From Candidatus Rifleibacteriota bacterium (GTDB lineage Bacteria; Muiribacteriota; Ozemobacteria; Ozemobacterales; Ozemobacteraceae), in NCBI GenBank assembly GCA_051747585.1, contig JBNJGH010000081.1, forward strand, positions 1 through 15,125: 15,125 nucleotides of DNA. Direction: 5' to 3'. Shown here one piece after another: positions 2,126 to 15,125 of the stretch. The position numbers were made by a program, and so were the translations under genes. Below the pieces are notes generated by a model. It did not search any database, was not told the origin of the DNA, and saw nothing but the letters and a program-made list of their open reading frames with translations. Within the stretch, counting starts at the first letter, position 1, and each line of letters opens with the position of its first letter.

Positions 2126-2157
2126 TAAATAATAACTTTTTGCTTGGAGTAATTAGT

Positions 2158-3459
2158 ATGTTGTTTTATTGCAAAAAATTCGGGCATTTTTTATGCCTTT
2201 TAATCATATTTGCCTCCCTCACTGGTCCAGGCTGGTCGGAGCCTTCTTCAGCGGTGTCCGGTTCGGTTATTATCCAGGGGTTCGGCTGGAACAGCCAGTC
2301 CAGGGGCGTGCCTTCCAGATGGTATAATCTTCTTGAACAGAGAGCTGACAGTTTGAAAAAGCTTGGGGTCGATATAATATGGCTCCCTCCGGCGGCAAGA
2401 TCAGTAAGCCCTCAGGGCTATCTTCCCGGCGACTATTATGATCTTGGTACAAAAGATAGTCCAACTTTTTATGGTGATATAGACCAGCTTAAAAAAGCTC
2501 TCAAAAAGCTTAACAGCAAAGGGATTGCGCCGGTTGCCGATATAGTTGTCAATCATCGTTGTGCCGGTGAGCAGGACAATAACGGAATCTGGAATGTTTA
2601 TCATTTCCCCTCCGGAAAAGCCCAATGGGAAAAATGGGCTGTTTGCCGCGGCGAATACGGTGGAACAGGAAACGCCGACAGCGGGCAAAACTATGCAGCG
2701 GCTCCTGATATAGATCATACCAACTCAACCTTGAGGCAGGACATTGCTGACTGGATGAACTGGCTTAAATCGCTTGGCTTCAAGGGCTGGCGTTATGATT
2801 TTTCCAAGGGCTATGCAGCAAAATATGCCGGTGCTTATGATAAAGCCACCAAACCCATAATTTCTGTGGGTGAGGTATGGACAAACATGGCTTTTCAAGG
2901 CTCTTATCTGCTTCCCGATCAAAATGCTCATCGCCAGATCCTTTGTGACTGGCTCGACAATAACGGTTCTTCTGTCTCTTGTGTGTTTGATTTTACTACC
3001 AAAGGCATACTTCAAGTTGCGGTAAACGGTGAATACTGGCGTCTTAAAGACGAACAGGGAAAACCTTCAGGTCTGATTGGCTGGTGGCCGGCAAGAGCAG
3101 TCACTTTTATCGATAATCACGATACGGGTTCGCAACAAAGTCATTGGCCATTTCCCGATGATAAAGTTATGCAGGGTTATGCCTATATTCTTACCCATCC
3201 CGGCATACCATGCGTTTTCTGGGAACATGTTTATGACTGGGATCTTTATAAAGAAATTCAAAAGCTCATCGCTGTTCGTAAAAGCTACGGAATTAAAAGC
3301 ACAAGCAGTATTGAAATTATAAAGGCACAAGATAATCTTTATGCTGCTGTAATCGATAAAAAGCTGGCAATAAAGCTTGGCGCTCGTGACTGGCAGCCGG
3401 GTTCTGATTTTAAAATTCTGGCATCGGGCGATAACTATTCTGTCTGGGGCCGCAAATAA
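2158..3459 (+). CDS. Secreted alpha-amylase, GH13 subfamily 6 (plant-type)
   Basis: GH13 conserved regions DIVVNH, GWRYDFSKG (nucleophile Asp), VGEVW (acid/base Glu) and FIDNHD. Also FDFTTKGIL, WPFP..KVMQGYAYILTHPG, a C-terminal beta-domain ending G.NYSVW, and a hydrophobic N-terminal signal. ATG 2158 follows GGAG (2146-2149) and is preferred over TTG 2140. Confidence 0.93.
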   Translation: MLFYCKKFGHFLCLLIIFASLTGPGWSEPSSAVSGSVIIQGFGWNSQSRGVPSRWYNLLEQRADSLKKLGVDIIWLPPAARSVSPQGYLPGDYYDLGTKDSPTFYGDIDQLKKALKKLNSKGIAPVADIVVNHRCAGEQDNNGIWNVYHFPSGKAQWEKWAVCRGEYGGTGNADSGQNYAAAPDIDHTNSTLRQDIADWMNWLKSLGFKGWRYDFSKGYAAKYAGAYDKATKPIISVGEVWTNMAFQGSYLLPDQNAHRQILCDWLDNNGSSVSCVFDFTTKGILQVAVNGEYWRLKDEQGKPSGLIGWWPARAVTFIDNHDTGSQQSHWPFPDDKVMQGYAYILTHPGIPCVFWEHVYDWDLYKEIQKLIAVRKSYGIKSTSSIEIIKAQDNLYAAVIDKKLAIKLGARDWQPGSDFKILASGDNYSVWGRK

Positions 3460-3593: not shown

Positions 3594-5213
3594 CTAGCTC
3601 TGAGGCAGCATCTGTCTGATAATTTCCAGACCGTTTTTTAAATTATTAGCCTTTATTTGCAGGGTTATGCCGAAAACATGGGCGACATTTATTAATAAAA
3701 CAATTCCCAGACATACTACCAGAGCAATTACAAGTCGTTTCATCGGGCTCTGTTTCTTGTCTTTTGGCGGAAACCAGCTGTTAAACTTCATTATGATTAT
3801 GGTCATCAGTGAGACTGCTACAAAAATCATAATCTGGAAGCGCTCATGGCGATTGACTATCGATTCTATCGGACCGGGAATTTCTTTGGCGGCTTCAGCC
3901 AGTTTCTGGGCAAGACTTAGTACCAGCGCCATTTCGTTTTGAATAAGTTGGGTAATTATAATTGCACCCAAAGCAAAAAACCAGGCAAAAAGACTCTCGG
4001 GTCTTGCTTTTTTTAAATTGCCTTCTTTGTCTATCTGGTTGCCATGCCAGGTAAGCCACAGACCCATAAGAGCCGGCAAAACCATCAATCTGCTATTTCC
4101 CCAGGCCATGGAGCTGACAAACCCCATTGACAGTGCCATCTTCTGTACACTGGTTCTTGCCTTTTCGTGCATGAGAAGTATTATTATCGCTATACCTAGA
4201 AATGCAAGTGAAAGCAGATGCTTGTTGCGGGTTTCAGATAAGAGCAGAGTGACCGCACCTATGAGAAGAAAAACTTCCATCAAAAAGAAATCTCTTTTAG
4301 GATCAGGTGGCTCAAAATCGAGTTTTTTGCGCAATTTACTTTGTTGAGATTCTTCTTCGCTGGGCGGTCGAATATCGAGAGCATTTATTCTTACCGAAGC
4401 GAAGCGTGAATGATTAACTTCCTCAAGCAACTCTGCAAGGTTGGAAGGTCTCAGGGTTTTAAGCAGATATACGGCTGAAGCCTGCAGGGCAATATTATTA
4501 CTGTGAACCATCTCTGCTATATGCTGCTCTGCCAGGTCTGCTTCATAAGCATAGATACTTTTGATTGCGTTCGCTCTGATGCGGTTGTCTGAGGAAGTGC
4601 AGAATTCGATCAATCTGCCTATATGGTCGCTGATTTTAAAATTGCCAAGACTTTCAATTGCATTGGCAACAATCCTTGGGTCTTCGTTTTCCAGGTATTT
4701 AACCAGAACTTCTGGGATTCGCTCGTCATCCAGCCTGCCAAGGGCTCGTAATAAGTAGGAGATTTTGTATTCATCGGTTTCCTCTTCAAGAAACTCGAGC
4801 AAAGGTTCTGCGATAGAGCTGTCGCGACTTTCAGTAAGACGGTCAATGGCCTCAAAAACTACATATCTGCTACCCAGCCGCATTTTATGAAGTAAAATTT
4901 GCTCAGCAGAAAGCGACTCACCTTCTTTAAGGCTTAGCGAAAGGCTTTTGACTGTCTGTTTCTCGGGTTCAACCTCGGGGTAGCAATCTAAAATATGATT
5001 GCGTGCCTTACGGGCAAAATAGCGGATTTGAGTGTCCGGATTCAGTATATTGTTTTTTACCAACGGAAATAGCTGTCGGCAAATTTCTAGAGTAAGAGAG
5101 TTCTGCTGACTCAAAAAGTCCAGGGCGATTATTTTATCACTATCTTCACCCTGCCTGAGAGACTGCTCAAGAAATTCAAGCCAGCTTGTCTGCGTTTGCA
5201 TGTTTTGATTCAT
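3594..5213 (-). CDS. HEAT-repeat domain membrane protein
   Basis: 539 aa. Repeated HEAT/PBS-lyase-like units (LENEDPRIVANAIESLG, SSDNRIRANAIKSI, NPDTQIRYFARKA) in the N-terminal ~300 aa, then about 6-7 hydrophobic segments. AGGAAAAGG upstream of the ATG. Confidence 0.8.
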   Translation of the reverse strand: MNQNMQTQTSWLEFLEQSLRQGEDSDKIIALDFLSQQNSLTLEICRQLFPLVKNNILNPDTQIRYFARKARNHILDCYPEVEPEKQTVKSLSLSLKEGESLSAEQILLHKMRLGSRYVVFEAIDRLTESRDSSIAEPLLEFLEEETDEYKISYLLRALGRLDDERIPEVLVKYLENEDPRIVANAIESLGNFKISDHIGRLIEFCTSSDNRIRANAIKSIYAYEADLAEQHIAEMVHSNNIALQASAVYLLKTLRPSNLAELLEEVNHSRFASVRINALDIRPPSEEESQQSKLRKKLDFEPPDPKRDFFLMEVFLLIGAVTLLLSETRNKHLLSLAFLGIAIIILLMHEKARTSVQKMALSMGFVSSMAWGNSRLMVLPALMGLWLTWHGNQIDKEGNLKKARPESLFAWFFALGAIIITQLIQNEMALVLSLAQKLAEAAKEIPGPIESIVNRHERFQIMIFVAVSLMTIIIMKFNSWFPPKDKKQSPMKRLVIALVVCLGIVLLINVAHVFGITLQIKANNLKNGLEIIRQMLPQS

Positions 5214-5240: not shown

Positions 5241-5269
5241 ATTATAACTTTTATCATCCCCAAAGGCAA
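5241..5269 (-). promoter_or_regulatory. Putative sigma70 promoter of the HEAT-repeat gene
   Basis: On the minus strand: TTGCCT (5269-5264), 17-bp spacer, TATAAT (5246-5241). Confidence 0.7.
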
Positions 5270-5286
5270 AACTTCCAATAAAAATT

Positions 5287-5655
5287 CAGCAATTCTCGGT
5301 AAGCGTTTATCAATTGGTTTCCGAAAAGAAAATTCCTCACACCAAGTCCCAAAGCCACAAAGAAAATAACCACAGAGCGCACAGAGAACACAGAGAATCG
5401 TTTTCAGCCATTGTTTCCTTCTTCAGCAAGCCTTCAGAAAAGCACTCGTGTTTTTCTGAAGACTTGCTGAAGAAGGAAAAGCCGGGCGGTGAAACCGCCG
5501 GCTATTTGTCCACAGGACAAATCCTGGCTGAAAAAGATTAAAAACTTAACTCCGTGCCCTCGGCGTCCTCAGTGGCTTAAATTCTTTATTTGCCCTAAAT
5601 AAATAAAACCAGAACTTTTTGTAACCAGCTAATAATGATTGACCGAGAATTCCTG
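5287..5655. repeat. ~365 bp highly structured dispersed repeat (MITE-like or structured ncRNA), copy 1
   Basis: Near-identical to 10266-10634. Imperfect terminal inverted repeats CAGCAATTCTCGGT.../...ACCGAGAATTCCTG, nested internal stems, no conserved ORF. Confidence 0.92.
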
Positions 5656-5785
5656 ATTAAAATTTTTAATTTTCGGTCAACAATTGTCAGTTCTTTAAAA
5701 CAAAGAAGATAATATTAAAAGAATTGAATGTCTTGAAACGGTTTCTACAAACAAATGGATAATTACCGGTTATGGCTTGTGTGCA

Positions 5786-5872: not shown

Positions 5873-8026
5873 ATGTTCAAAATACGAAATTATTTTATTT
5901 TGTTTCTGGCTCTTTGTATTGTCGGGCTGCCAATAGTTGCTCAAGCCCAGATCAGAGTTGATTCTGACCGCAGCCTTGAGGCAGATGTGCATGTTACTGT
6001 TCCTGAACTTGGCAAAGTGAATTTTTCCGTAGAAAATCAGGATTTTGTCGGTCTTTTTATGAAGCATTCCCGTTTGCTGGTCGACAAAGGAAAACCCGCA
6101 CTGCCGGTAATGACTGGTTTGGCAATGATATCAACCGACGGAAAACCAAAGTTGACAATTGTTGAAACCAAATTCGAAGAAATACAGCTTAACAGGGCTG
6201 TGGTTCCATCTCGAGGTATTATTCCCCGTAATGTTGATCCGCGCAAAGTTCCTTTTAAAAAAGGCAAAGTTTACAAACAAAACAGATGGTTTCCCTCGAC
6301 CCGTGAAATTGTAAAAATCTCAAATCCCTTTATCTTTCGTGAAGTTCGTGGCTTGAGACTTCAGGTTGCACCGGTTCAATATAACCCGGTGTCAGGCAAG
6401 CTTAGAGTCTATTCTTATATTCGCGCAAAAATACAGTATGACGGAAAAGGCGGCCCTAACGTTCATCGCGGCCGGACAGATTTAACCAGAGCTTATGCGC
6501 CGATTTATCGCAAAGCCTTTTTGAACTTCGCAACAGTACCTAAAAGACTTTCTCCGGTAAATGAAAATGGAAGACTTATTATTCTAGCCGCAGATGACTT
6601 TGTGAACGCAGTAGCTCCACTGGCTACCTGGAAGAAAAAATGCGGAATAAAGACAATTTTGGTGAGTGCTTCTCAAATTGGCGGAGCAACAGAAGACAAT
6701 ATAAAAAACTTTTTAAGGCAGCAGTTTAAAGAAGCAGGATTTTCGCATGTTATTCTGGTTGGCGATGCTGAGCAGATCCCGCCCTGTAAGGGCGAAAACG
6801 AAGGAGCAGACTCTGATCCGGTATATGTAAAACTTGCCGGAGATGATCATGTCCCCGATGCCATTATAAGCCGTATATCTGCAGCTACGCCTGAAAAAGT
6901 TTCTTATCAGGTTGCCAAAATTATCAATTATGAACAGTATCCATCGGAAGGCGAAGATGCCGGTTGGTATACCAGAACTCTCGGCATAGCCAGCAATGAA
7001 GGAAACCCCACAGATTTTGAACGAATGGATGAGCTTAAGGAAGCTTTGTTAAATGCCGGTCGTTATAAAGATTTTTCAACAGTTTATGCTCCTGTGCATT
7101 CATCTGGCGGATCGGGTGGTTATAATGGTTATCCTTATCCCGGTAATTCATATCCAGGTAATAATACTGATTATGATGGAATGGGGGGATTTAACAGCCC
7201 AAATCCTCATTACCCAATGCCCGGGGATTCAATGCCGCCGATGTATTCTGTTGATCGCTCTCGAAACCGAAGCGGTTCTTTGAAGGATCAGGTTTTTGAA
7301 TCTGTTAATTCGGGCGTTTCTTTAATTAACTACATCGGACATGGTTCTTCCAGTAAATGGGTAACTTCCGGTTTCAGCAGCAGTGATTGCAAAAAGCTTA
7401 CCAACGGACTTATGCTTCCTGTAATTCTCAGTGTGGCATGTGTTAATGGAGATTTTGTTGGTAAAGACTCTTTTTGTGAAGCCTGGATGAACGCGGGATC
7501 TATAGACCAGCCTCGTGGTGCTGTTGCCATCTTCGGTTCAACTACCAATCAGTCCTGGGTGCCCCCGTGCAAAGTTCAAACTGAAATTGTAACTGACTTT
7601 ATAATCAATGATTCATATATTACCGTTGGTGGTCTTATGACCAATGGAATTATAAAGGGTCTCGAAATTTATGGTGTAGAAACTCATAGCGAAGGCGTGA
7701 AAATGATGGAGCAGTGGCATCTGTTCGGCGATGGTACTACCATGATGCGCTCCAGGGCTCCATACAGGCCGGTTGCAAAATTTAAAACCGAGTCAATTGA
7801 AGGCGAAAGCCAGGTTATTGCACAAGTACTTGATAAAAATGGTAAACCTGTAAAAGATGCCAGAGTAACTTGTTATAGCCCTGATATGGAACTGATGGCA
7901 ACCTCTCTGGTTAATGACAAAGGTCTTGCCCGGGTAAATATCGGGCTGGTTAAAGGCCAGAGCGCCTATGTTACCGTAATTGGTCCTGATATGGTTCCAA
8001 TCGTAGATAAAGAAATTAAATTCTAA
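5873..8026 (+). CDS. Peptidase family C25 (gingipain R-like) cysteine protease with signal peptide and propeptide
   Basis: 717 aa. Signal peptide, propeptide motifs (GKPALP, REVRG..LQVAPVQYNPV), VILVGDAEQIP, SDPVY and ISRISA. Catalytic NYIGHGS (H490) and SVACVNG (C523) have the 33-residue spacing of RgpB H211/C244. LFGD motif and an Ig-like tail. AAGGTGG RBS. Confidence 0.93.
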   Translation: MFKIRNYFILFLALCIVGLPIVAQAQIRVDSDRSLEADVHVTVPELGKVNFSVENQDFVGLFMKHSRLLVDKGKPALPVMTGLAMISTDGKPKLTIVETKFEEIQLNRAVVPSRGIIPRNVDPRKVPFKKGKVYKQNRWFPSTREIVKISNPFIFREVRGLRLQVAPVQYNPVSGKLRVYSYIRAKIQYDGKGGPNVHRGRTDLTRAYAPIYRKAFLNFATVPKRLSPVNENGRLIILAADDFVNAVAPLATWKKKCGIKTILVSASQIGGATEDNIKNFLRQQFKEAGFSHVILVGDAEQIPPCKGENEGADSDPVYVKLAGDDHVPDAIISRISAATPEKVSYQVAKIINYEQYPSEGEDAGWYTRTLGIASNEGNPTDFERMDELKEALLNAGRYKDFSTVYAPVHSSGGSGGYNGYPYPGNSYPGNNTDYDGMGGFNSPNPHYPMPGDSMPPMYSVDRSRNRSGSLKDQVFESVNSGVSLINYIGHGSSSKWVTSGFSSSDCKKLTNGLMLPVILSVACVNGDFVGKDSFCEAWMNAGSIDQPRGAVAIFGSTTNQSWVPPCKVQTEIVTDFIINDSYITVGGLMTNGIIKGLEIYGVETHSEGVKMMEQWHLFGDGTTMMRSRAPYRPVAKFKTESIEGESQVIAQVLDKNGKPVKDARVTCYSPDMELMATSLVNDKGLARVNIGLVKGQSAYVTVIGPDMVPIVDKEIKF

Positions 8027-8074: not shown

Positions 8075-8152
8075 ATTTAACCTGTTTTAATAACTTGCGG
8101 TTTGTCTGTTAATAGTGATATTTTACAGGCAATTTCATGCGGAGTTGCAGAT

Positions 8153-9118
8153 ATGACCACAACAATTTTAAAATCAGCCAGAAAAGCGTTAGAAGCTGAA
8201 ATAGAAGCTATCAAGAGCGCTCAAAAACGTCTGGGCGACGAATTTATCGATGCAGTAGACCTTATATTAAGTGCTTCCGGTCGTCTTGTCGTATGCGGCA
8301 TGGGAAAGTCAGGTTTGGTAGGAAAAAAAATCTCGGCAACTCTCAGCAGCACCGGCACTCCTTCCTTCTTTCTTCATCCTGCAGAAGCTCTGCATGGCGA
8401 TCTCGGTATGGTTACCGACCAGGACGTGGTTCTTTTGCTGTCAAACTCCGGCGAAACCGATGAAATTGTAAGGCTTATACCTTTTTTGCGAAGAATTGGA
8501 GCTCGACTAATTGCAATGGTTGGCAAAAAGGATTCTTCATTGGCTCGCATGTCAGACGTAGTAATTGATTGCGGCGTAGAACACGAGGCCTGCCCTATGG
8601 ATCTAGCGCCGACCAGCTCCACTACAGTAACTATGGCACTCGGAGATGCCGTTGCCGTGGCTCTTATAGAAGCTCGTGGTTTTAAAGAAAAAGATTTTGC
8701 TCGACTTCATCCATCAGGCAGTCTTGGGCGCAAATTTTTAACTGTAGCTGATTTAATGCACACCTCAAATGAAATTCCCTTTGCTGCTCCCGATATTAAG
8801 CTTGCAGATGCAGTGGTTGAAATGTCGCGCGGAGGTTTTGGTGCTCTGGTAATTGCTGATGAAAGCCGTAAATTATCAGGTGTATTTACAGATGGCGATT
8901 TGCGTAGGTTTTTTGAAAAGGGTTCCAGTCGGAATTTTGAGGCACCCATAAGCGAGGTAATGACCAGAAATCCTGCAGGCATTGCACCCGATCGCCTTGC
9001 CATGGAAGCTCTGAAACTCATGGAAGATAAATCTATTACTTCTTTGCCTGTATTAAAAGGTGAAGTTGTGGTTGGTTTTGTTCACCTGCATGATATACTT
9101 CGCGCCAGACTCGTATAA
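8153..9118 (+). CDS. kdsD: D-arabinose 5-phosphate isomerase, KpsF/GutQ family (SIS + 2 CBS domains)
   Basis: Motifs GMGKSG, ATLSSTGTPSFFLHPAEALHGDLG, SNSGET, EACP..LAPTSST, HPSGSLG and GVFTDGDLRR. ATG 8153 follows GGAG (8141-8144) and is preferred over TTG 8102. Confidence 0.95.
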   Translation: MTTTILKSARKALEAEIEAIKSAQKRLGDEFIDAVDLILSASGRLVVCGMGKSGLVGKKISATLSSTGTPSFFLHPAEALHGDLGMVTDQDVVLLLSNSGETDEIVRLIPFLRRIGARLIAMVGKKDSSLARMSDVVIDCGVEHEACPMDLAPTSSTTVTMALGDAVAVALIEARGFKEKDFARLHPSGSLGRKFLTVADLMHTSNEIPFAAPDIKLADAVVEMSRGGFGALVIADESRKLSGVFTDGDLRRFFEKGSSRNFEAPISEVMTRNPAGIAPDRLAMEALKLMEDKSITSLPVLKGEVVVGFVHLHDILRARLV

Positions 9119-9195: not shown

Positions 9196-10176
9196 CTATT
9201 TTACGCCCATAGTGGCTACCATTACCGCTTTAATGGTATGTAGACGATTTTCTGCCTGATCAAATACCTTTGAGTATTTGCTTTCGAATACTTCATCGGT
9301 GACTTCCATTGCACCGGTGTCTTTTGACATTATTGTTTCGTCGTTATGGAAAGCTGGCAGACAATGCAGGAAAATCGGGTTGTCTTTGCCGGTCTTTTTT
9401 ATCATTTCCATGTTTACCTGATAAGGCTTGAGTAGTCTAATTCTTTCTTCCATTTCTGCTTCTTCGCCCATGCTAGCCCAAACGTCGGTATAAATTACAT
9501 CAACGTCTTTTATTCCTTCATCTACAGAATCAGTTACCACTATTTTTCCGCCGGTTTCTTTGGCGATAATTTCTACATCTCTAACCAGTTCCTGTTCAGG
9601 AAACAGAGATTTTGGTGAAATAATTCTGCATTCAAGGCCCATTTTGGCGCAGCCAATCATCAGAGAGTTAGCCATGTTGTTGCGGCCATCGCCGACGTAT
9701 GCAAAGGTAATTCCTTTTAAGGTGTTAAAGTTTTCCTGAATGGTTAGCAGGTCAGCCAGAACCTGAGTCGGGTGATACTGATCAGTCAGGCCGTTCCATA
9801 CTGGAACTCCGGCGTGTTCTGCAAGTCCTTGAACTGTTTCGTGCTTGAAGCCGCGAAACTGAATGCCGTCAAACATTCGCCCGAGAACTCTTGCGGTATC
9901 TTTTACAGTTTCTTTTTTGCCAAGCTGGATGTCATTTTTACCCAGATATTCAGGATGCGCGCCTTCATCAGCGCAAGCAACTACAAAAGCACATCTGGTT
10001 CTGGTTGAAGGCTTTTCAAAAATAAGGGCAACATTTTTGCCTTCAAGGTTTCTTGGCTTGATGCCTGCATATTTTAGTCTTTTCAGGTCAGCTGAAAGCT
10101 GTAATAAATAACTGATTTCATCAGGAGTAAAATCTTTGAGAGTTAAAAGGTTACGTCCGGTAAGATTAAATGCCAT
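9196..10176 (-). CDS. argF: Ornithine carbamoyltransferase
   Basis: FEKPSTRTR carbamoyl-phosphate motif, [20 protein letters not shown] and QAENRLH. ATG 10176 (MAFNL) follows GGAAAGGA. Anabolic (argF) versus catabolic (arcB) role cannot be settled from sequence. Confidence 0.96.
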
Positions 10177-10227
10177 ATTGTAATTTCCTTTCCCAGTTGT
10201 CAGAATAATAGTCTTCAATGTGCTAAA

Positions 10228-10265: not shown

Positions 10266-10634
10266 CAAGTAATTCTCAGTCAGCGATTATCAGTTCTTTT
10301 CAGAAAAGAAAATTCCTCACACCAAGTCTCAAAGCCACAAAGAAAATAACCACAGAGCGCACAGAGAACACAGAGAGTTTTTTCAGCCATTGTTTCCTTC
10401 TTCAGCAAGCCTTCAGAAAAGCACTCGTGTTTTTCTGAAGGCTTGCTGAAGAAGGGAAAGCCGGGCGGTGAAACCGCCGGCTATTTGTCCACAGGACAAA
10501 TCCTGGCTGAAAAAGATTAAAAAATCAACTCTGTGCTCTCGGTGGCCTCAGTGGTTTAAATTCTAAATTTGACAGAAAGAAATAAAACCAGAACATTTTG
10601 TAACCAGCTAATAATGATTGACCAAGAATTCCTG
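10266..10634. repeat. ~365 bp highly structured dispersed repeat (MITE-like or structured ncRNA), copy 2
   Basis: Direct-orientation copy of 5287-5655 with offset 4980. Same terminal inverted repeats and nested stems. Confidence 0.92.
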
Positions 10635-10678: not shown

Positions 10679-13600
10679 TTAAGTGGTTTGGATTACTTCG
10701 TTGCATAGCACGGCAAAGCCACAAGTATCGCAGGTGCTTTCGTCGCCCGGTAGCCAGCTGTTATCCTTTCTGATCTGCTCGACGGTTTGTATTGCCCTTT
10801 TTTCAAAATCAATCAGATCTGCTTTGAGGTCGACAATTTCCAGTTTGACGGGATTTATATAGGCGATACTTGCCCGGGGAAAGTTCAAACATCCGATTTG
10901 TCCCAGCACTCCGCGTTGCGCAGCAATTAGATAAAGGGCAAGCTGATCTGCATAGCTTTGATGAGCTTTTTCATCAAAAGTTCTGGTTTTGAAATCGATT
11001 ATGTTTATGCCTTCGTCATTATTATCAACCCTGTCGGCAAAGCCTCTCAAATAAAAAGATCCGGAAGGAGCGTTGAACTTGAGGTTAACTTCTGCCTCTG
11101 TCATCCATGGTTTAATGCTTGAAAGCTTTGATTGAAGGTAACTGTCGATCAATCTTTCAACCCTTGGCTTTACTTCTTCCCCTTCTTTCTGGTGTAACTG
11201 GCAGAGATCGTCTAAGATTGCCTGAGTAAAACGTTGTTTTTCGCTGAAATTCTGCAGTTCATGTCCGTTGCGATTATGAAAAATTCTGACTGATTCATGA
11301 AATATGGTTCCGGCAAGGGCAAACAAATTAGGCTCAGACTCGCGAAATGTACTTATATGCCTGCTGAGGAAGAAATATTTGCGCGGACAATTTCGGTATA
11401 TACTTAAATCCTGGAGTGAGAAAATATCGCTGAGACTTTGTTGCTCAGTCTTGCCGTCTTCGTTTTTTATTGATAAAAATGAGGCAAAAGCTTCAAGTTC
11501 AGACTTGATTTCGGTTAAGTCGTTTGTCTTTGTTTCTTCGATAATTTCCGGTTCTGATTCTATTGCTCCTGCTTCAAGCCATTTTTTTACTATTTCGGGC
11601 CAGGTATCGAGGCTGGTGATTTTTCCTAGTTCTGGCTTATTGCTGAGTATATCGCGGATCTCTGCCAAAGGTTCATTTGAAGCTTTTTCTTTGTCTTCGG
11701 GTTCAAAGCTTCTGCTTTCCTGTCCAGAGGTGATTAAAATATCCTGAGCGCGGGTAAAGGCGACATAAAGTTTTCTTCTGCTTTCTCTTTCTTCTGCTTC
11801 CTGTTCGCCTTCAACATACTGCTTTAAATTTTCGCTATAAGCCTCTTTGCCCTTTTTGTCAGGGTCTTTGACCATCAGGCCATACTGTCGGTCAAAGAAA
11901 ATGCGATTTCTTACTCTAAATTTCTGCGCTTTCAAGAAAGGACAGATTACAATTGGAAACTCCAGGCCTTTCGATTTATGAATAGTCATAATTTTGACGG
12001 CATCGCCCTCTTCTAGCCCTAACCCTGCCTCGTCTTCGTCGATTCCTGAAAGCAATATTTTTTCGATATATTGGAGGAAGTCTCTTAACGAAGTAAAAAT
12101 GCCCTTTTGCTCAAAATTGCGCACAATAGCAAGAAACTTGCTGAGGTTGTTTTCCATTCTTCGTCTTTTAATTTCAGAATTCTGGGTTGCAGCGTATTCT
12201 AGAAAGCCTGCCTGCTCAAGAATAGTGTGACAAAGCTCAAGCAGGCTGCTTTTGGCACTTTTATTTTTTAGAATTACATAAAGTTTTCTGAATTCGACTG
12301 CTGCAGACGGGAGCTCCTGCTTTGGACTTGCAAGAATATGAGGTAGTAAAGCTACTTTCTCGTTTCTGCCTTTAAGCGAAAGGGCTGCTAAATCAGAGTC
12401 ATTTAATCCATAAAGCGGGCCGGTAAGAATTTTTACCAGAGAAAAATCGTCTTCAGGCATTACAATTAACTTTAGAAAAGCCAGAATTTCTTCTATTTCG
12501 CTTCGGGCATAAAAGCTGAAGCCGCCTGACATAATGTAAGGAATTTTTTCTTCGGCAAGGCTGTCTTCAAATGACCTGGGCAAAGATTTTACACTACTGA
12601 GAATAATAGCAATATCGCCAGCCTGAACCCTGCGCTTTTCGTCATTGCTTTTGATACTCATGCCTGAGGTAATAAGGCTTTTAATAAACGCTGCCAGCTC
12701 TTTGCAGACGTCTTCTTCATTCTTCTCGTCGGGGGTGGTGAGACAAAGAACAGCGGGCTTCCTGGGTGACTCGCCTCGGCGGGCTGTTTGAGGCACGGAT
12801 AATTTACCACCGGGGAATTTAAGAGCGAGAAAGCTGTCGGCAAAATCAAGTATTTCACAATAGGATCTGAAATTATCAGTAAGAACAATGTCGGTGTCAC
12901 TTTTAAAATTTTTAAAAGTCGATATGTCTGCACCCTGAAAGCGGTAGATGCTTTGTTTTTCGTCGCCGACAACAGAGATGTGGCCGTCTGGCCGGTCTAA
13001 GAAGAGGTTTACAATGCCCAGCTGGTCCGGGTTGTTATCTTGAAATTCATCGATTAGAAAGGTTTTGGCAGCAGGAAATTCATTGGCTTCTACCATTTCC
13101 TTTACCAATGAACGGCCTCTGATAAGTATTTCGTCGAAATCGAGCAGATTTCGTTTGCGTAATTCTTCGAGAAAATATGTTGAAAAGCGAAACAGCCATT
13201 CGAGTGTGTTTTTTTCGATGTCATCAACCGGGGCTGATCTTTGTTTAAAAGCCGCTCGTGCGTGCTGATAAAATTCACCGGGAGTCAAAAGGTAGCGCCT
13301 GATTTTACCCAATGCATCAGGGAACTCGTTTATCAAGCGATCAGCTACAGAAGCGCCAAGTTTTTCGGAGCCATCTATGATTTCCTGACCGTGTAATCTG
13401 GCAAATTTTTCTTTTAGTTCGGCAAGTATGAGTTTGCGTTCATTTTCGGGAACAACTGTGTCTGACCTGTCTATGCCGGCGCCAAAGGGATCTTTTTTGA
13501 GAAGGTCGGCCAAAAATGCATGAAATGTGGCTACCTTCATTTCGCGCAAAATGGCGGGCGAGATTTTGCGCCTTTGAACCAGCCTTGTTTTCATTTCTCC

Positions 13601-13822
13601 GGCCGCTTTTTGGGTATAGGTAATTGCTACCAGTTCTTCGGGCTTTATGCCTTTTTCCAGCAAAGCTGCAATTCTTCTGGTCAAAACTTCCGTTTTTCCC
13701 GAACCTGCTCCGGCTGATATTCTTAATCTACCTTCGGGATCGCAGGTTACGGCACTTACCTGTTCGCTGGTAAGTCCACTTAGCAGATTGGAGCTGATTT
13801 TATTGTTTTTGTTGTTGTTCAT
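10679..13822 (-). CDS. UvrD/SF1 ATP-dependent helicase fused to a C-terminal PD-(D/E)XK (RecB-like) nuclease; AdnB/AddA-like
   Basis: 1047 aa. Walker A AGAGSGKT, DEFQD, VGDEKQSIYRFQGA, NFRS, MTIHKSKGLEF and LYVAFTRA. Nuclease motifs GFADRVD, IIDFKT and QLALY. Cys pattern CPRKY ... CDTCGFAVLC. Confidence 0.93.
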   Translation of the reverse strand: MNNNKNNKISSNLLSGLTSEQVSAVTCDPEGRLRISAGAGSGKTEVLTRRIAALLEKGIKPEELVAITYTQKAAGEMKTRLVQRRKISPAILREMKVATFHAFLADLLKKDPFGAGIDRSDTVVPENERKLILAELKEKFARLHGQEIIDGSEKLGASVADRLINEFPDALGKIRRYLLTPGEFYQHARAAFKQRSAPVDDIEKNTLEWLFRFSTYFLEELRKRNLLDFDEILIRGRSLVKEMVEANEFPAAKTFLIDEFQDNNPDQLGIVNLFLDRPDGHISVVGDEKQSIYRFQGADISTFKNFKSDTDIVLTDNFRSYCEILDFADSFLALKFPGGKLSVPQTARRGESPRKPAVLCLTTPDEKNEEDVCKELAAFIKSLITSGMSIKSNDEKRRVQAGDIAIILSSVKSLPRSFEDSLAEEKIPYIMSGGFSFYARSEIEEILAFLKLIVMPEDDFSLVKILTGPLYGLNDSDLAALSLKGRNEKVALLPHILASPKQELPSAAVEFRKLYVILKNKSAKSSLLELCHTILEQAGFLEYAATQNSEIKRRRMENNLSKFLAIVRNFEQKGIFTSLRDFLQYIEKILLSGIDEDEAGLGLEEGDAVKIMTIHKSKGLEFPIVICPFLKAQKFRVRNRIFFDRQYGLMVKDPDKKGKEAYSENLKQYVEGEQEAEERESRRKLYVAFTRAQDILITSGQESRSFEPEDKEKASNEPLAEIRDILSNKPELGKITSLDTWPEIVKKWLEAGAIESEPEIIEETKTNDLTEIKSELEAFASFLSIKNEDGKTEQQSLSDIFSLQDLSIYRNCPRKYFFLSRHISTFRESEPNLFALAGTIFHESVRIFHNRNGHELQNFSEKQRFTQAILDDLCQLHQKEGEEVKPRVERLIDSYLQSKLSSIKPWMTEAEVNLKFNAPSGSFYLRGFADRVDNNDEGINIIDFKTRTFDEKAHQSYADQLALYLIAAQRGVLGQIGCLNFPRASIAYINPVKLEIVDLKADLIDFEKRAIQTVEQIRKDNSWLPGDESTCDTCGFAVLCNEVIQTT

Positions 13823-15125
13823 CTTTGTTTTTCAAGATTTTCCTGGCAGAATGTATAAAACTCACATCTGGGTTTTCGGTCACGGTCAAAATTCAGACAG
13901 GACATTGCTTCAGAATCATTTGAAGGGCGACACATAAAACACCGATCTGTTTTGATTTCATTTAAAATTTGTATTATTCGATCGGTGAACCTGTTAAAAT
14001 CATTTTCAGATACCTCTATGCCGTATTCGGGCCCGCATCCGGCGTTTAAGGCAGCACTGCGCAAAAATCCTGCAGACATTTGTTTGAATTTCCTTTTGTA
14101 TAATCCCTGTCTGACATAAAGTAAAATTGCGCCTGCGTTTTTGTATCCCATTGCTCTACAGGCCATCAGGTAAAGAGGTAATTGTATTTCTCTGGGGTCA
14201 CCGGTTTCGGGAAAGGCTTTTTCGAACGCTTTTTCCGAGCTGGCCGGTGAAGATTTGCTTGTTTTGTAATCAACTACCAGAACCGAATTATCCTGTTGAA
14301 CCAGTCGATCAAATCTGCCTCTGAATTTAAAGCCCGAAAAAGTGAAATTAAAACCCTTTTCAACTCCCACAGTGCTGCGTGGAGGTAATTGGTAATTATT
14401 GTAAATGGCTGTAATGTAATCTGGTAGCGTTTGTTTTATACTTTCTATTTCCTGATGCCTTTTAAAGAAATCCAGATCATTTAGAACCGGTATGCAATGT
14501 TGTTCGAATAAAGCATCGAGCTCGTGTTCTTCGGGCAGTTTCCCTTTTTCCCAGATGCTACCGGGGCGATGTAGCTCTTCAAGCAGTGCGTGAAAAGCGT
14601 TGCCGGTTTTGAACCAGCTTTGTTGCTCAAGCAATGGGTTGCGTATTTTAAGAATGTTCAGGAAATAAAACCGTCTGGGGCAGTCGATGTAATTTTTAAT
14701 CGAGCTGGCAGAAAAAACAAAATCTTCAGGCAGTTTTACTTCATCGATAGAGGCCTTTTTAAAGCTTCTGGGCCGTATTCCATGAGCTGAAAAATTTTCG
14801 TCTATAAGATTGTCGAATCCTTTTATTTCCGGTTCCAGTTCTTCGAGTTCGTTTTCGGCTAAATTTGCAAGGCAGGTGCGAAATTCGCTTAAATTGAGGG
14901 GTCTTTGATCGGTGGTAAGGTCTTGAGCAATAAGTTGTAATTCTTTAAGGTATGGTGCCGGCATTGTCGGGTCTGTTCCCTGTTTGAGCGGATAGGATAA
15001 GATTAAGCCTTCTTCTGCTCTGGTTATAGCGACAAAAAACAATCTTCTTTCTTCTTCGAGGTGATCTTCGTGATTAAGAGGGTATGGGTTAAAAAATCTG
15101 GTCTGACGGTTTTGTTTGTCAAATA
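13819..15125 (-). CDS. C-terminal part of a second UvrD-like helicase/PD-(D/E)XK nuclease (AdnA-like); 5' end outside the window
   Basis: The frame stays open to the window edge and reads LEEERRLFFVAITRA (helicase motif VI). Nuclease motifs SASSIKNYIDCPRRFY, GRFDRL, VVDYKT and QLPLY. Stop codon overlaps the next start (ATGA, 13819-13822). Confidence 0.9.
   Translation of the reverse strand, partial: FDKQNRQTRFFNPYPLNHEDHLEEERRLFFVAITRAEEGLILSYPLKQGTDPTMPAPYLKELQLIAQDLTTDQRPLNLSEFRTCLANLAENELEELEPEIKGFDNLIDENFSAHGIRPRSFKKASIDEVKLPEDFVFSASSIKNYIDCPRRFYFLNILKIRNPLLEQQSWFKTGNAFHALLEELHRPGSIWEKGKLPEEHELDALFEQHCIPVLNDLDFFKRHQEIESIKQTLPDYITAIYNNYQLPPRSTVGVEKGFNFTFSGFKFRGRFDRLVQQDNSVLVVDYKTSKSSPASSEKAFEKAFPETGDPREIQLPLYLMACRAMGYKNAGAILLYVRQGLYKRKFKQMSAGFLRSAALNAGCGPEYGIEVSENDFNRFTDRIIQILNEIKTDRCFMCRPSNDSEAMSCLNFDRDRKPRCEFYTFCQENLEKQR

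Follow-up and report, generated by a model that had tools for sequence, protein, structure and literature searches.

Prokaryotic MITEs such as Chunjie of Geobacter, Correia, ERIC and bcr1 are, according to the review sections devoted to them, non-coding elements of less than 500 bp with terminal inverted repeats, which duplicate their target, lie between genes, fold very stably and occur in many partial copies (PMC3184786; PMC10969869). The repeat examined here, present twice in a 15,125-nucleotide stretch of DNA from Candidatus Rifleibacteriota bacterium (the window), is like them in each of these respects and, going by the same reviews' description of Chunjie, shares with that family a duplication of 9 bp. 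It differs from them in its oriented, base-precise placement upstream of -35 boxes, and in a nested, invertible core whose long hairpin diversifies while its arms stay matched. TnGBS/ISLre2 (p-MULT 3) and the ISKra4 group (p-MULT 4) have been described as inserting in a fixed orientation at 15-17 bp upstream of the -35 boxes of sigma-A promoters, and in the part of that work concerned with them this spacing is a hallmark of these Mutator-like elements (PMC3942029). Our repeat resembles them in its oriented promoter-upstream insertion, in duplications of 8-9 bp and in ends starting with C, and differs from them in that the matching ends, found in relatives, belong to an element with a DDE_Tnp_1 transposase that has ISNCY-annotated plasmid homologues, not to one with a Mutator-like transposase.

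In REPINs, as portrayed in the spacer analysis of PMC3116915, conserved inverted ends surround a spacer of which length and pairing are kept, not sequence, and compensatory changes are common. The same is found here, and the inner 210-bp unit of our repeat also stands alone in AT-rich DNA; a REPIN has a single hairpin, however, whereas here three hairpins form a core that mostly travels within a shell of DDE type. The only RAYT-like gene in the genome (a Y1 transposase) lies at a contig end, with unrelated repeats in its assembled flank and the other flank missing. Template switching in quasi-palindromes, in the cases covered by two published accounts, has as its signature that arms are homogenised and the spacer is inverted in one step (PMC8604942; PMC8794818), and both effects recur in our data. 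What sets these apart from the published cases is that a single bacterial genome offers about 100 paralogous copies in which to count events, and that one mismatch, four pairs from the loop, is spared. Set beside these systems, the cloverleaf is a real structure, most likely at the level of DNA, and the parasite that carries it, though of a known kind, is unusual in two respects.

The cloverleaf and the element around it

A preliminary description of the window had drawn a compact cloverleaf on a four-way junction, and its helices proved to be placed correctly. A closing stem (5401-5410/5525-5534) encloses the long hairpin H1 (5414-5479), whose 32-nt arms (5414-5445/5448-5479) are 94% complementary, followed by H2 (5480-5503; one bulge, sequence conserved) and H3 (5504-5522; stem conserved, loop variable), and the junction has five unpaired bases (5411-5413 and 5523-5524). 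The 134-base core folds on the plus strand at -81.6 kcal/mol (z -11.5) and equally well on the minus strand (z -11.1), far beyond chance on both (0 of 200 shuffles as good). H1 consists of a variable stem of 20 bp (5416-5435/5458-5477) and a conserved loop-proximal palindrome (5436-5457), in the centre of which (5442-5451) a mismatch is retained, G5442.T5451, that inversion flips to its A.C form. The genome holds 101 complete cores with 63 left-arm versions of H1. In most copies the closing stem has 14 bp (5396-5409/5526-5539), and this 14-bp inverted repeat bounds a core at 5396-5539.

What the preliminary description missed is the 369-bp mobile element in which the core lies. Copy 1 of this nested imperfect palindrome (whole-element fold z about -12) spans 5287-5655 and copy 2 spans 10266-10634, with its core at 10375-10518. 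Both ends carry a 16-bp terminal inverted repeat with the consensus CAGCAATTCTCGGTCA, common to 44 full-length copies; in copy 1 the left, promoter-facing repeat is at 5287-5302 (plus strand) and the right one at 5640-5655 (minus strand). Outside these lie the two copies of a 9-bp target duplication, ATAAAAATT at 5278-5286 and ATTAAAATT at 5656-5664 (both plus strand), which differ by one mismatch. Among the 44 full-length copies analysed (45 apparent copies less a mis-paired one that was dropped), the flanking 9-mers agree with at most one mismatch in 22, compared with 0.1% of cross-pairings, and differ at four or more positions in 15. Short, non-coding and multicopy, with 16-bp ends and 9-bp duplications, the 369-bp element is a MITE; a 75-codon frame that spans copy 1 is broken by core inversion in 33 copies. 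Nested in it is an inner unit of about 210 bp (5369-5576), bounded by inverted triplet repeats of the ACCACAGAG type; at about 12 loci this unit is found with both outer arms missing.

BLAST with the element's three parts gave matches at 216 loci of the assembly (4.1 Mb), many of which are only fragments or abut the end of a contig; the assembly is 93.55% complete in 330 contigs, many of which break inside the element, and all sequence compared here is assembled sequence. In a sediment run of a related strain, the element reached about 1000-fold depth and its flanks, which differ from the window by a few percent, 6-8-fold, a ratio of more than 100-fold. A single contig of another run, of depth 3, joins 5295 to 5673, as an empty site in a related strain might; one side of it has 38 bases, and it may be the end of another copy. 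Directly beside copy 1, at 5665-5710 (plus strand), an earlier element at this site is represented by its degraded left end (repeat family D3). New copies are stacked on old ends in 13 of 44 cases, against 3 of 43 and 5 of 44 in controls, which is suggestive only. Since the same ends enclose other cargo, on contig C203 of the source genome and in relatives that fill MITE-type ends with differing nested hairpins, the shell does not need the cloverleaf.

Between the two window copies, the core is indeed the best-conserved part, with 132 of 134 positions identical; for the two arms the figures are 101 of 112 and 106 of 121, or about 90%. The two core differences had been described as A/G transitions that leave a wobble pair on one strand, and this is accurate: A5462 faces C5431, an A.C on the plus strand and a wobble only on the minus strand, and in copy 2 the changed G10456 faces T10395, a G.T on the plus strand, so that the two wobbles favour opposite strands. 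They carry no weight for RNA, however, because in a palindrome every transition produces a wobble on one of the two strands.

Several related repeats were seen along the way. MITEs of 116-287 bp with the same ends and unrelated nested-hairpin interiors occur at L158-L165 (G017), L141 (G015), L156 (G054) and L143 (G024), and in other genera the cargo between the triplet repeats that bound the inner unit consists of different small hairpins (L009 of G010, L003 of G001, and L018:546-629 of G011). Other palindromic repeat families are intermixed with pieces of the element in many intergenic regions and at 5727-5764 of the window, on both sides of which reads of other runs diverge.

Promoter-like boxes and the probable transposase partner

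Within the source genome, TTG lies at outward position 17-18 of 68 of 110 left ends and of only 8 of 94 right ends, so that in these 68 cases the left end is separated by 16-17 bp from a -35-like box downstream of it; a -10-like hexamer follows at outward 40-41 of 45 of 110 left ends, compared with 1 of 94 right ends. Judged by these motifs, the element sits mostly just upstream of promoter-like boxes, and is oriented towards them. In the window, the left end of copy 1 has 17 bp outside it the -35 box of a putative sigma70-like promoter (TTGCCT-17-TATAAT, 5241-5269, minus strand; a consensus match only) of the gene at 3594-5213, and copy 2 is without canonical -35 spacing. For the host the significance is modest, that of a genomic parasite landing just outside promoters. 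The neighbouring genes are ordinary: a KamA-family radical SAM protein (319-2094), an alpha-amylase (2140-3459), a HEAT-repeat-like protein (3594-5213), what we take to be a gingipain-like peptidase (5873-8026; a weak PorU match in NCBIfam), a KpsF/GutQ isomerase (8102-9118), an ornithine carbamoyltransferase (9196-10218) and an AddA/AddB-like helicase-nuclease pair (10679-15125).

Ends of the CAGCAATTCTCGGTCA type (16-base pattern, one mismatch) occur at least 11 times in 10 of 86 relatives, with at most 4 hits for reversed-pattern controls, and autonomous elements with the MITE's ends are present in two relatives. One, in G022, is a 1564-bp IS (L179:1407-2970) without a target duplication, whose ends are 0-1 mismatch from those of the MITE. 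Its 439-aa transposase passes the DDE_Tnp_1 cut-off but falls short of every named IS model, and three of its 15 listed plasmid homologues (33-36% identity) are annotated as ISNCY, which is a catch-all label. The other, in G006, is a 1773-bp relative (L190:1095-2867) with a perfect 9-bp duplication, a -35 box at 17 and ends that have 3 mismatches to the MITE's. TTG at 17-18 is found at 7 of 10 downstream IS ends compared with 2 of 11 upstream ones, a count in which 11 of the 21 scored ends are pieces from G003, mostly at contig edges and assigned by similarity. Because relatives carry ISNCY-type DDE insertion sequences that share these ends and this habit, the MITE is probably not driven by a Mutator transposase; comparison of ends suggests that the MITE was likely moved by an ISNCY-type DDE transposase. 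A partner of this type suggests that insertion guided by promoters is not confined to the Mutator group but extends to a DDE family beyond it. Apparently intact ISNCY-type IS, in L179 (G022), L190 (G006), L181 and L189, have a downstream end that faces a -35-like box at 15-18 bases.

The source assembly itself holds no close partner: its sole homologue is 24% identical and is without MITE ends. This homologue (L187:198-2632; G000:C307) is a DDE-type transposase of 508 aa directly behind a 303-aa gene. No ISLre2, ISKra4 or IS256 transposase was found in the genome, from which PF00872 is absent. NF033572 and NF033529 gave nothing above cut-off in 51 genomes, the ISLre2 searches being without a positive control, and two weak ISLre2 matches are, by our reading, ISL3-like. 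Other candidates showed no link to the ends, namely the genome's own IS1380-like and IS1182-like elements (labelled by reading), its Y1 transposase, a group II intron and two tyrosine recombinases. ISAs1 is missing from the genome, and its loci in relatives are without the ends except for one composite locus; no GxxExxY-type protein was found. Exact-pattern scans of species genomes and metagenomes, for the ends and for H2, were empty, the patterns being long, and a paper from the literature on MITEs and ISLre2 contains, in the passages compared, no description of such elements (PMC9208149).

Pairing, inversion and conservation in the core

Despite 63 different left arms, Watson-Crick pairing holds for 2088 of the 2121 cells (98%) that make up the distal part of H1 (pairs 10-30, counted from the loop); the exceptions are 11 A.C, 8 G.T, 7 other and 7 gaps. 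G-T accounts for at most 11 of these 2121 cells, compared with 30 of 472 G-U in the acceptor and anticodon stems of the genome's tRNAs. The left arm is 32 nt long in 86 of 101 cores, and entire 20-bp stems differ among copies with both arms matched. When 40 of the 101 cores were picked for diversity, 33 of 63 pairs covaried (284 cells), and none of 500 shuffles scored as high. Covariation had been named beforehand as a check on a functional RNA; it was passed, yet its outcome here points to one arm having been copied from the other. Among 45 young cores, we counted 13 distinct double changes (21 cells) against 6 single ones, where chance would give 0.13-0.4 doubles at the rate of H2 (1.5% per site). 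At that rate about 37 changed arm cells are expected, and the 6 single and 21 doubled cells seen are about what a rule of erasing or copying each change would leave. Parsimony over 80 indel-free cores gave 133 pair-to-pair changes versus 20 from pair to mismatch. Changes in H2, H3 and the closing stem are mostly one-sided, the exception being two outer pairs of H3. An excess of transversions was considered as a further sign of copying and dropped, 59 of 133 being close to the rRNA figure in the part of PMC8794818 that reports it.

Inversions are found at two levels. The core is oriented as in the window in 61 of 101 copies, is inverted between the arms in 33 and could not be assigned in 7, and the ten central bases of H1 coexist as reverse complements (27 versus 11, 10 versus 3 and 6 versus 3). 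The fourth pair, the central mismatch, is G.T in 48 cores, A.C in 32, paired in 20 and other in 1. About 6 switches of core orientation fall on an arm tree of 42 copies, and parsimony assigns about 19 flips and about 12 corrections to the H1 centre; because the trees are blurred by exchange between copies, these counts are approximate. Overall, the covariation of H1 is DNA-like rather than RNA-like, and arm-to-arm copying, that is, template switching, fits it. Since true RNA stems can also be maintained by template switching, going by the cases treated in PMC8794818, this process does not in itself speak against an RNA role.

Two symmetric cores (G000:C52:1327-1518 and C92:8205-8401) have two long hairpins of unrelated stems around H2, replacing H3. 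The 5' arm of the variable stem (5416-5435 and its homologues) is rich in C and poor in G; every third base is C or T, and a single A is nearly invariant among variable neighbours, which may reflect ancestry or triplet slippage.

Conservation within the core is uneven. In 12 older full-length copies, differences per site amount to 0.43 in the variable stem, 0.42 in unpaired bases, 0.20 in the arms and 0.08 in the scaffold, and six loop-proximal pairs have 0 changes on a tree that assigns about 7 to each of the pairs next to them. Corrections of the central mismatch sit at single-copy tips in 11 of 12 cases, compared with 79 of 137 distal double changes (p 0.03), a test that is only suggestive owing to the same blurring of trees. 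That the scaffold and one central mismatch are kept while the stem drifts hints at DNA-level selection, as in REPINs, and the pattern fits selection among copies for a scaffold that aids spread, as has been argued for these. Central mismatches slow cruciform extrusion. Part of the conservation pattern is explained by gene conversion, because young cores are more uniform than their arms (0.05 versus 0.13) and stems have been swapped between copies.

Explanations for the upkeep of the fold

The reading that we favour, with moderate confidence, is that the cloverleaf forms the centre of a promoter-box-adjacent MITE moved by an ISNCY-type transposase, and that its long hairpin is kept paired by re-copying of arms in DNA. 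The inverted ends, the 9-bp duplications, the copy number, the promoter spacing and the double changes and inversions are observed, as are the same ends on a transposase-bearing element in relatives. A transposase acting in trans would likely cut at the 16-bp ends and be guided to promoters. Template switching within the 66-bp palindrome, during DNA synthesis or repair, would very likely re-copy one arm from the other, so that a new mutation is either erased or copied onto its partner base; switches of strand would invert the centre of the hairpin or, at the 14-bp repeat, the whole core. It is perhaps slightly better than an even bet that scaffold and mismatch are kept because only copies retaining them found new ones, whether through a putative DNA-processing protein or through avoidance of a perfect and hence unstable palindrome; no candidate protein for reading the scaffold came to light. 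The earlier suggestion of a selected RNA or ssDNA fold thus holds in so far as a DNA-level structure or recognition site is plausible, and finds no support where it proposed a selected RNA such as an ncRNA or an RNase III site.

These results may serve as a warning case, in that covariation was passed by a wide margin and yet looks like a product of DNA copying; since this repeat passes so widely, RNA function should not be inferred from covariation when the sequences compared are paralogous palindromes. The roughly 100 copies also form a natural data set for template switching as a function of stem length and distance from the loop, and the apparently intact 1.56-kb IS of G022 is at hand for testing targeting.

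It is possible, and we put it forward tentatively, that the parasite has two tiers, with the cloverleaf a replicator of its own (scaffold and mismatch being read by a putative DNA-processing enzyme, the 20-bp stem free and self-correcting) that travels aboard a non-Mutator, ISNCY-type, promoter-homing shell; in the literature, we found a targeting rule of 16-17 bp upstream of promoters only for Mutator-like elements. Rather doubtful is the notion that the cloverleaf is passive cargo, paired by template switching and conserved by gene conversion among copies, with no recognition involved. Among 30 full-length copies that share a young stem, arms differ by 0.128 and cores by 0.04-0.05, diversity rising outward from the core; 67 of 97 shared arm variants are also present in older copies, one copy combines young arms with an unrelated stem, H2 does mutate in young copies, and other cargo is moved by the shell, all as this notion would have it. 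Conversion centred on the hairpin should, however, homogenise the variable stem first, yet in the older copies it is this stem that differs most and the scaffold that differs least, and passive cargo sits poorly with six unchanged loop-proximal pairs beside changing neighbours. That perfect pairing and flips are in part artefacts of short-read assembly of a high-copy palindrome is very improbable: the assembly is fragmented, with many contigs broken within the element, and the evidence from related runs consists of contigs, but mismatches have come through assembly (the central one in 81 of 101 cores, besides 33 distal cells that are unpaired or gapped), 20-bp stems vary between copies with both arms matched, and the numbers of single and doubled changes fit the copying model.

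The RNA reading, under which the fold would be a selected small RNA, an RNase III element or a terminator-like element on read-through transcripts, draws on the great stability of the fold, on the covariation and on the Bacillus repeat bcr1, described in the passage on it as a transcribed, cruciform-like repeat with compensatory changes (PMC3184786). Moreover, transcription may run through the 36 of 101 cores that have co-directional genes on either side; by crude ORF calls, it would cross the minus strand in 24 of these and the plus strand in the other 12, and the strand read through would have A.C at the fixed mismatch in 19 and G.U in 9 (p 0.09). We nevertheless regard this reading as improbable. 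Neither G-U use nor a strand bias is seen (G.T 8 versus A.C 11), both strands fold equally, core and hairpin centre invert freely, and the loops vary as much as the free stem. No Rfam family reaches its cut-off, seven weak matches at E up to 1 all being far below, and the core model, with 36 candidates scored per genome, found no homologue in 86 other genomes of the phylum; the loop motif had no match in viral contigs. In RNA runs X4 and X20, cover of the core is low or absent in assembled contigs, which says nothing on transcription. Less credible still is a retron reading, in which the minus strand would be an RNA of msr-msd type that the genome's retron RT copies in trans. The closing stem, two short hairpins and one long variable hairpin recall the helix order in the relevant portion of PMC6868368. 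The genome does encode a retron-type RT. Repeats resembling msDNA are reportedly found in Nannocystis, which would favour such an origin. Yet the RT has its own conserved upstream RNA-like fold of different sequence, the core model had no match at the RT loci given to it, and the nearest core is about 20 kb away. In addition, the G of the closing-arm CAGC is paired in 97 of 101 cores, the H2 loop varies, no linker separates H2 from the long hairpin, and the copies bear DDE-type ends and duplications.

Comparison of the core with phages and plasmids found nothing. The variable stem was also considered as a guide or captured spacer, and this was rejected, the longest exact genome match of 64 arms being 15 nt (mean 13.3 versus 12.5-12.8 for shuffled arms); as captured flank it fared no better, 53 distinct stems matching their own flanks at 10.0 and other flanks at 10.2 of 14. 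As for the RT, it is a stand-alone retron-type protein of 285 aa (L015:1348-2390, G000:C43; L022-L035) whose best PADLOC models are XIII, III-A and X, and it has matches in all 5 genomes searched from the genus and in all 7 from another genus. Upstream of it lies a conserved, covarying fold in which a closing stem surrounds four short hairpins and a long msd hairpin is missing, and in G000 no effector gene is adjacent. Other retron-like RTs of the family have a classical layout upstream of the RT (L038 and L036), which in L038 includes a near-perfect long hairpin within a long closing stem.
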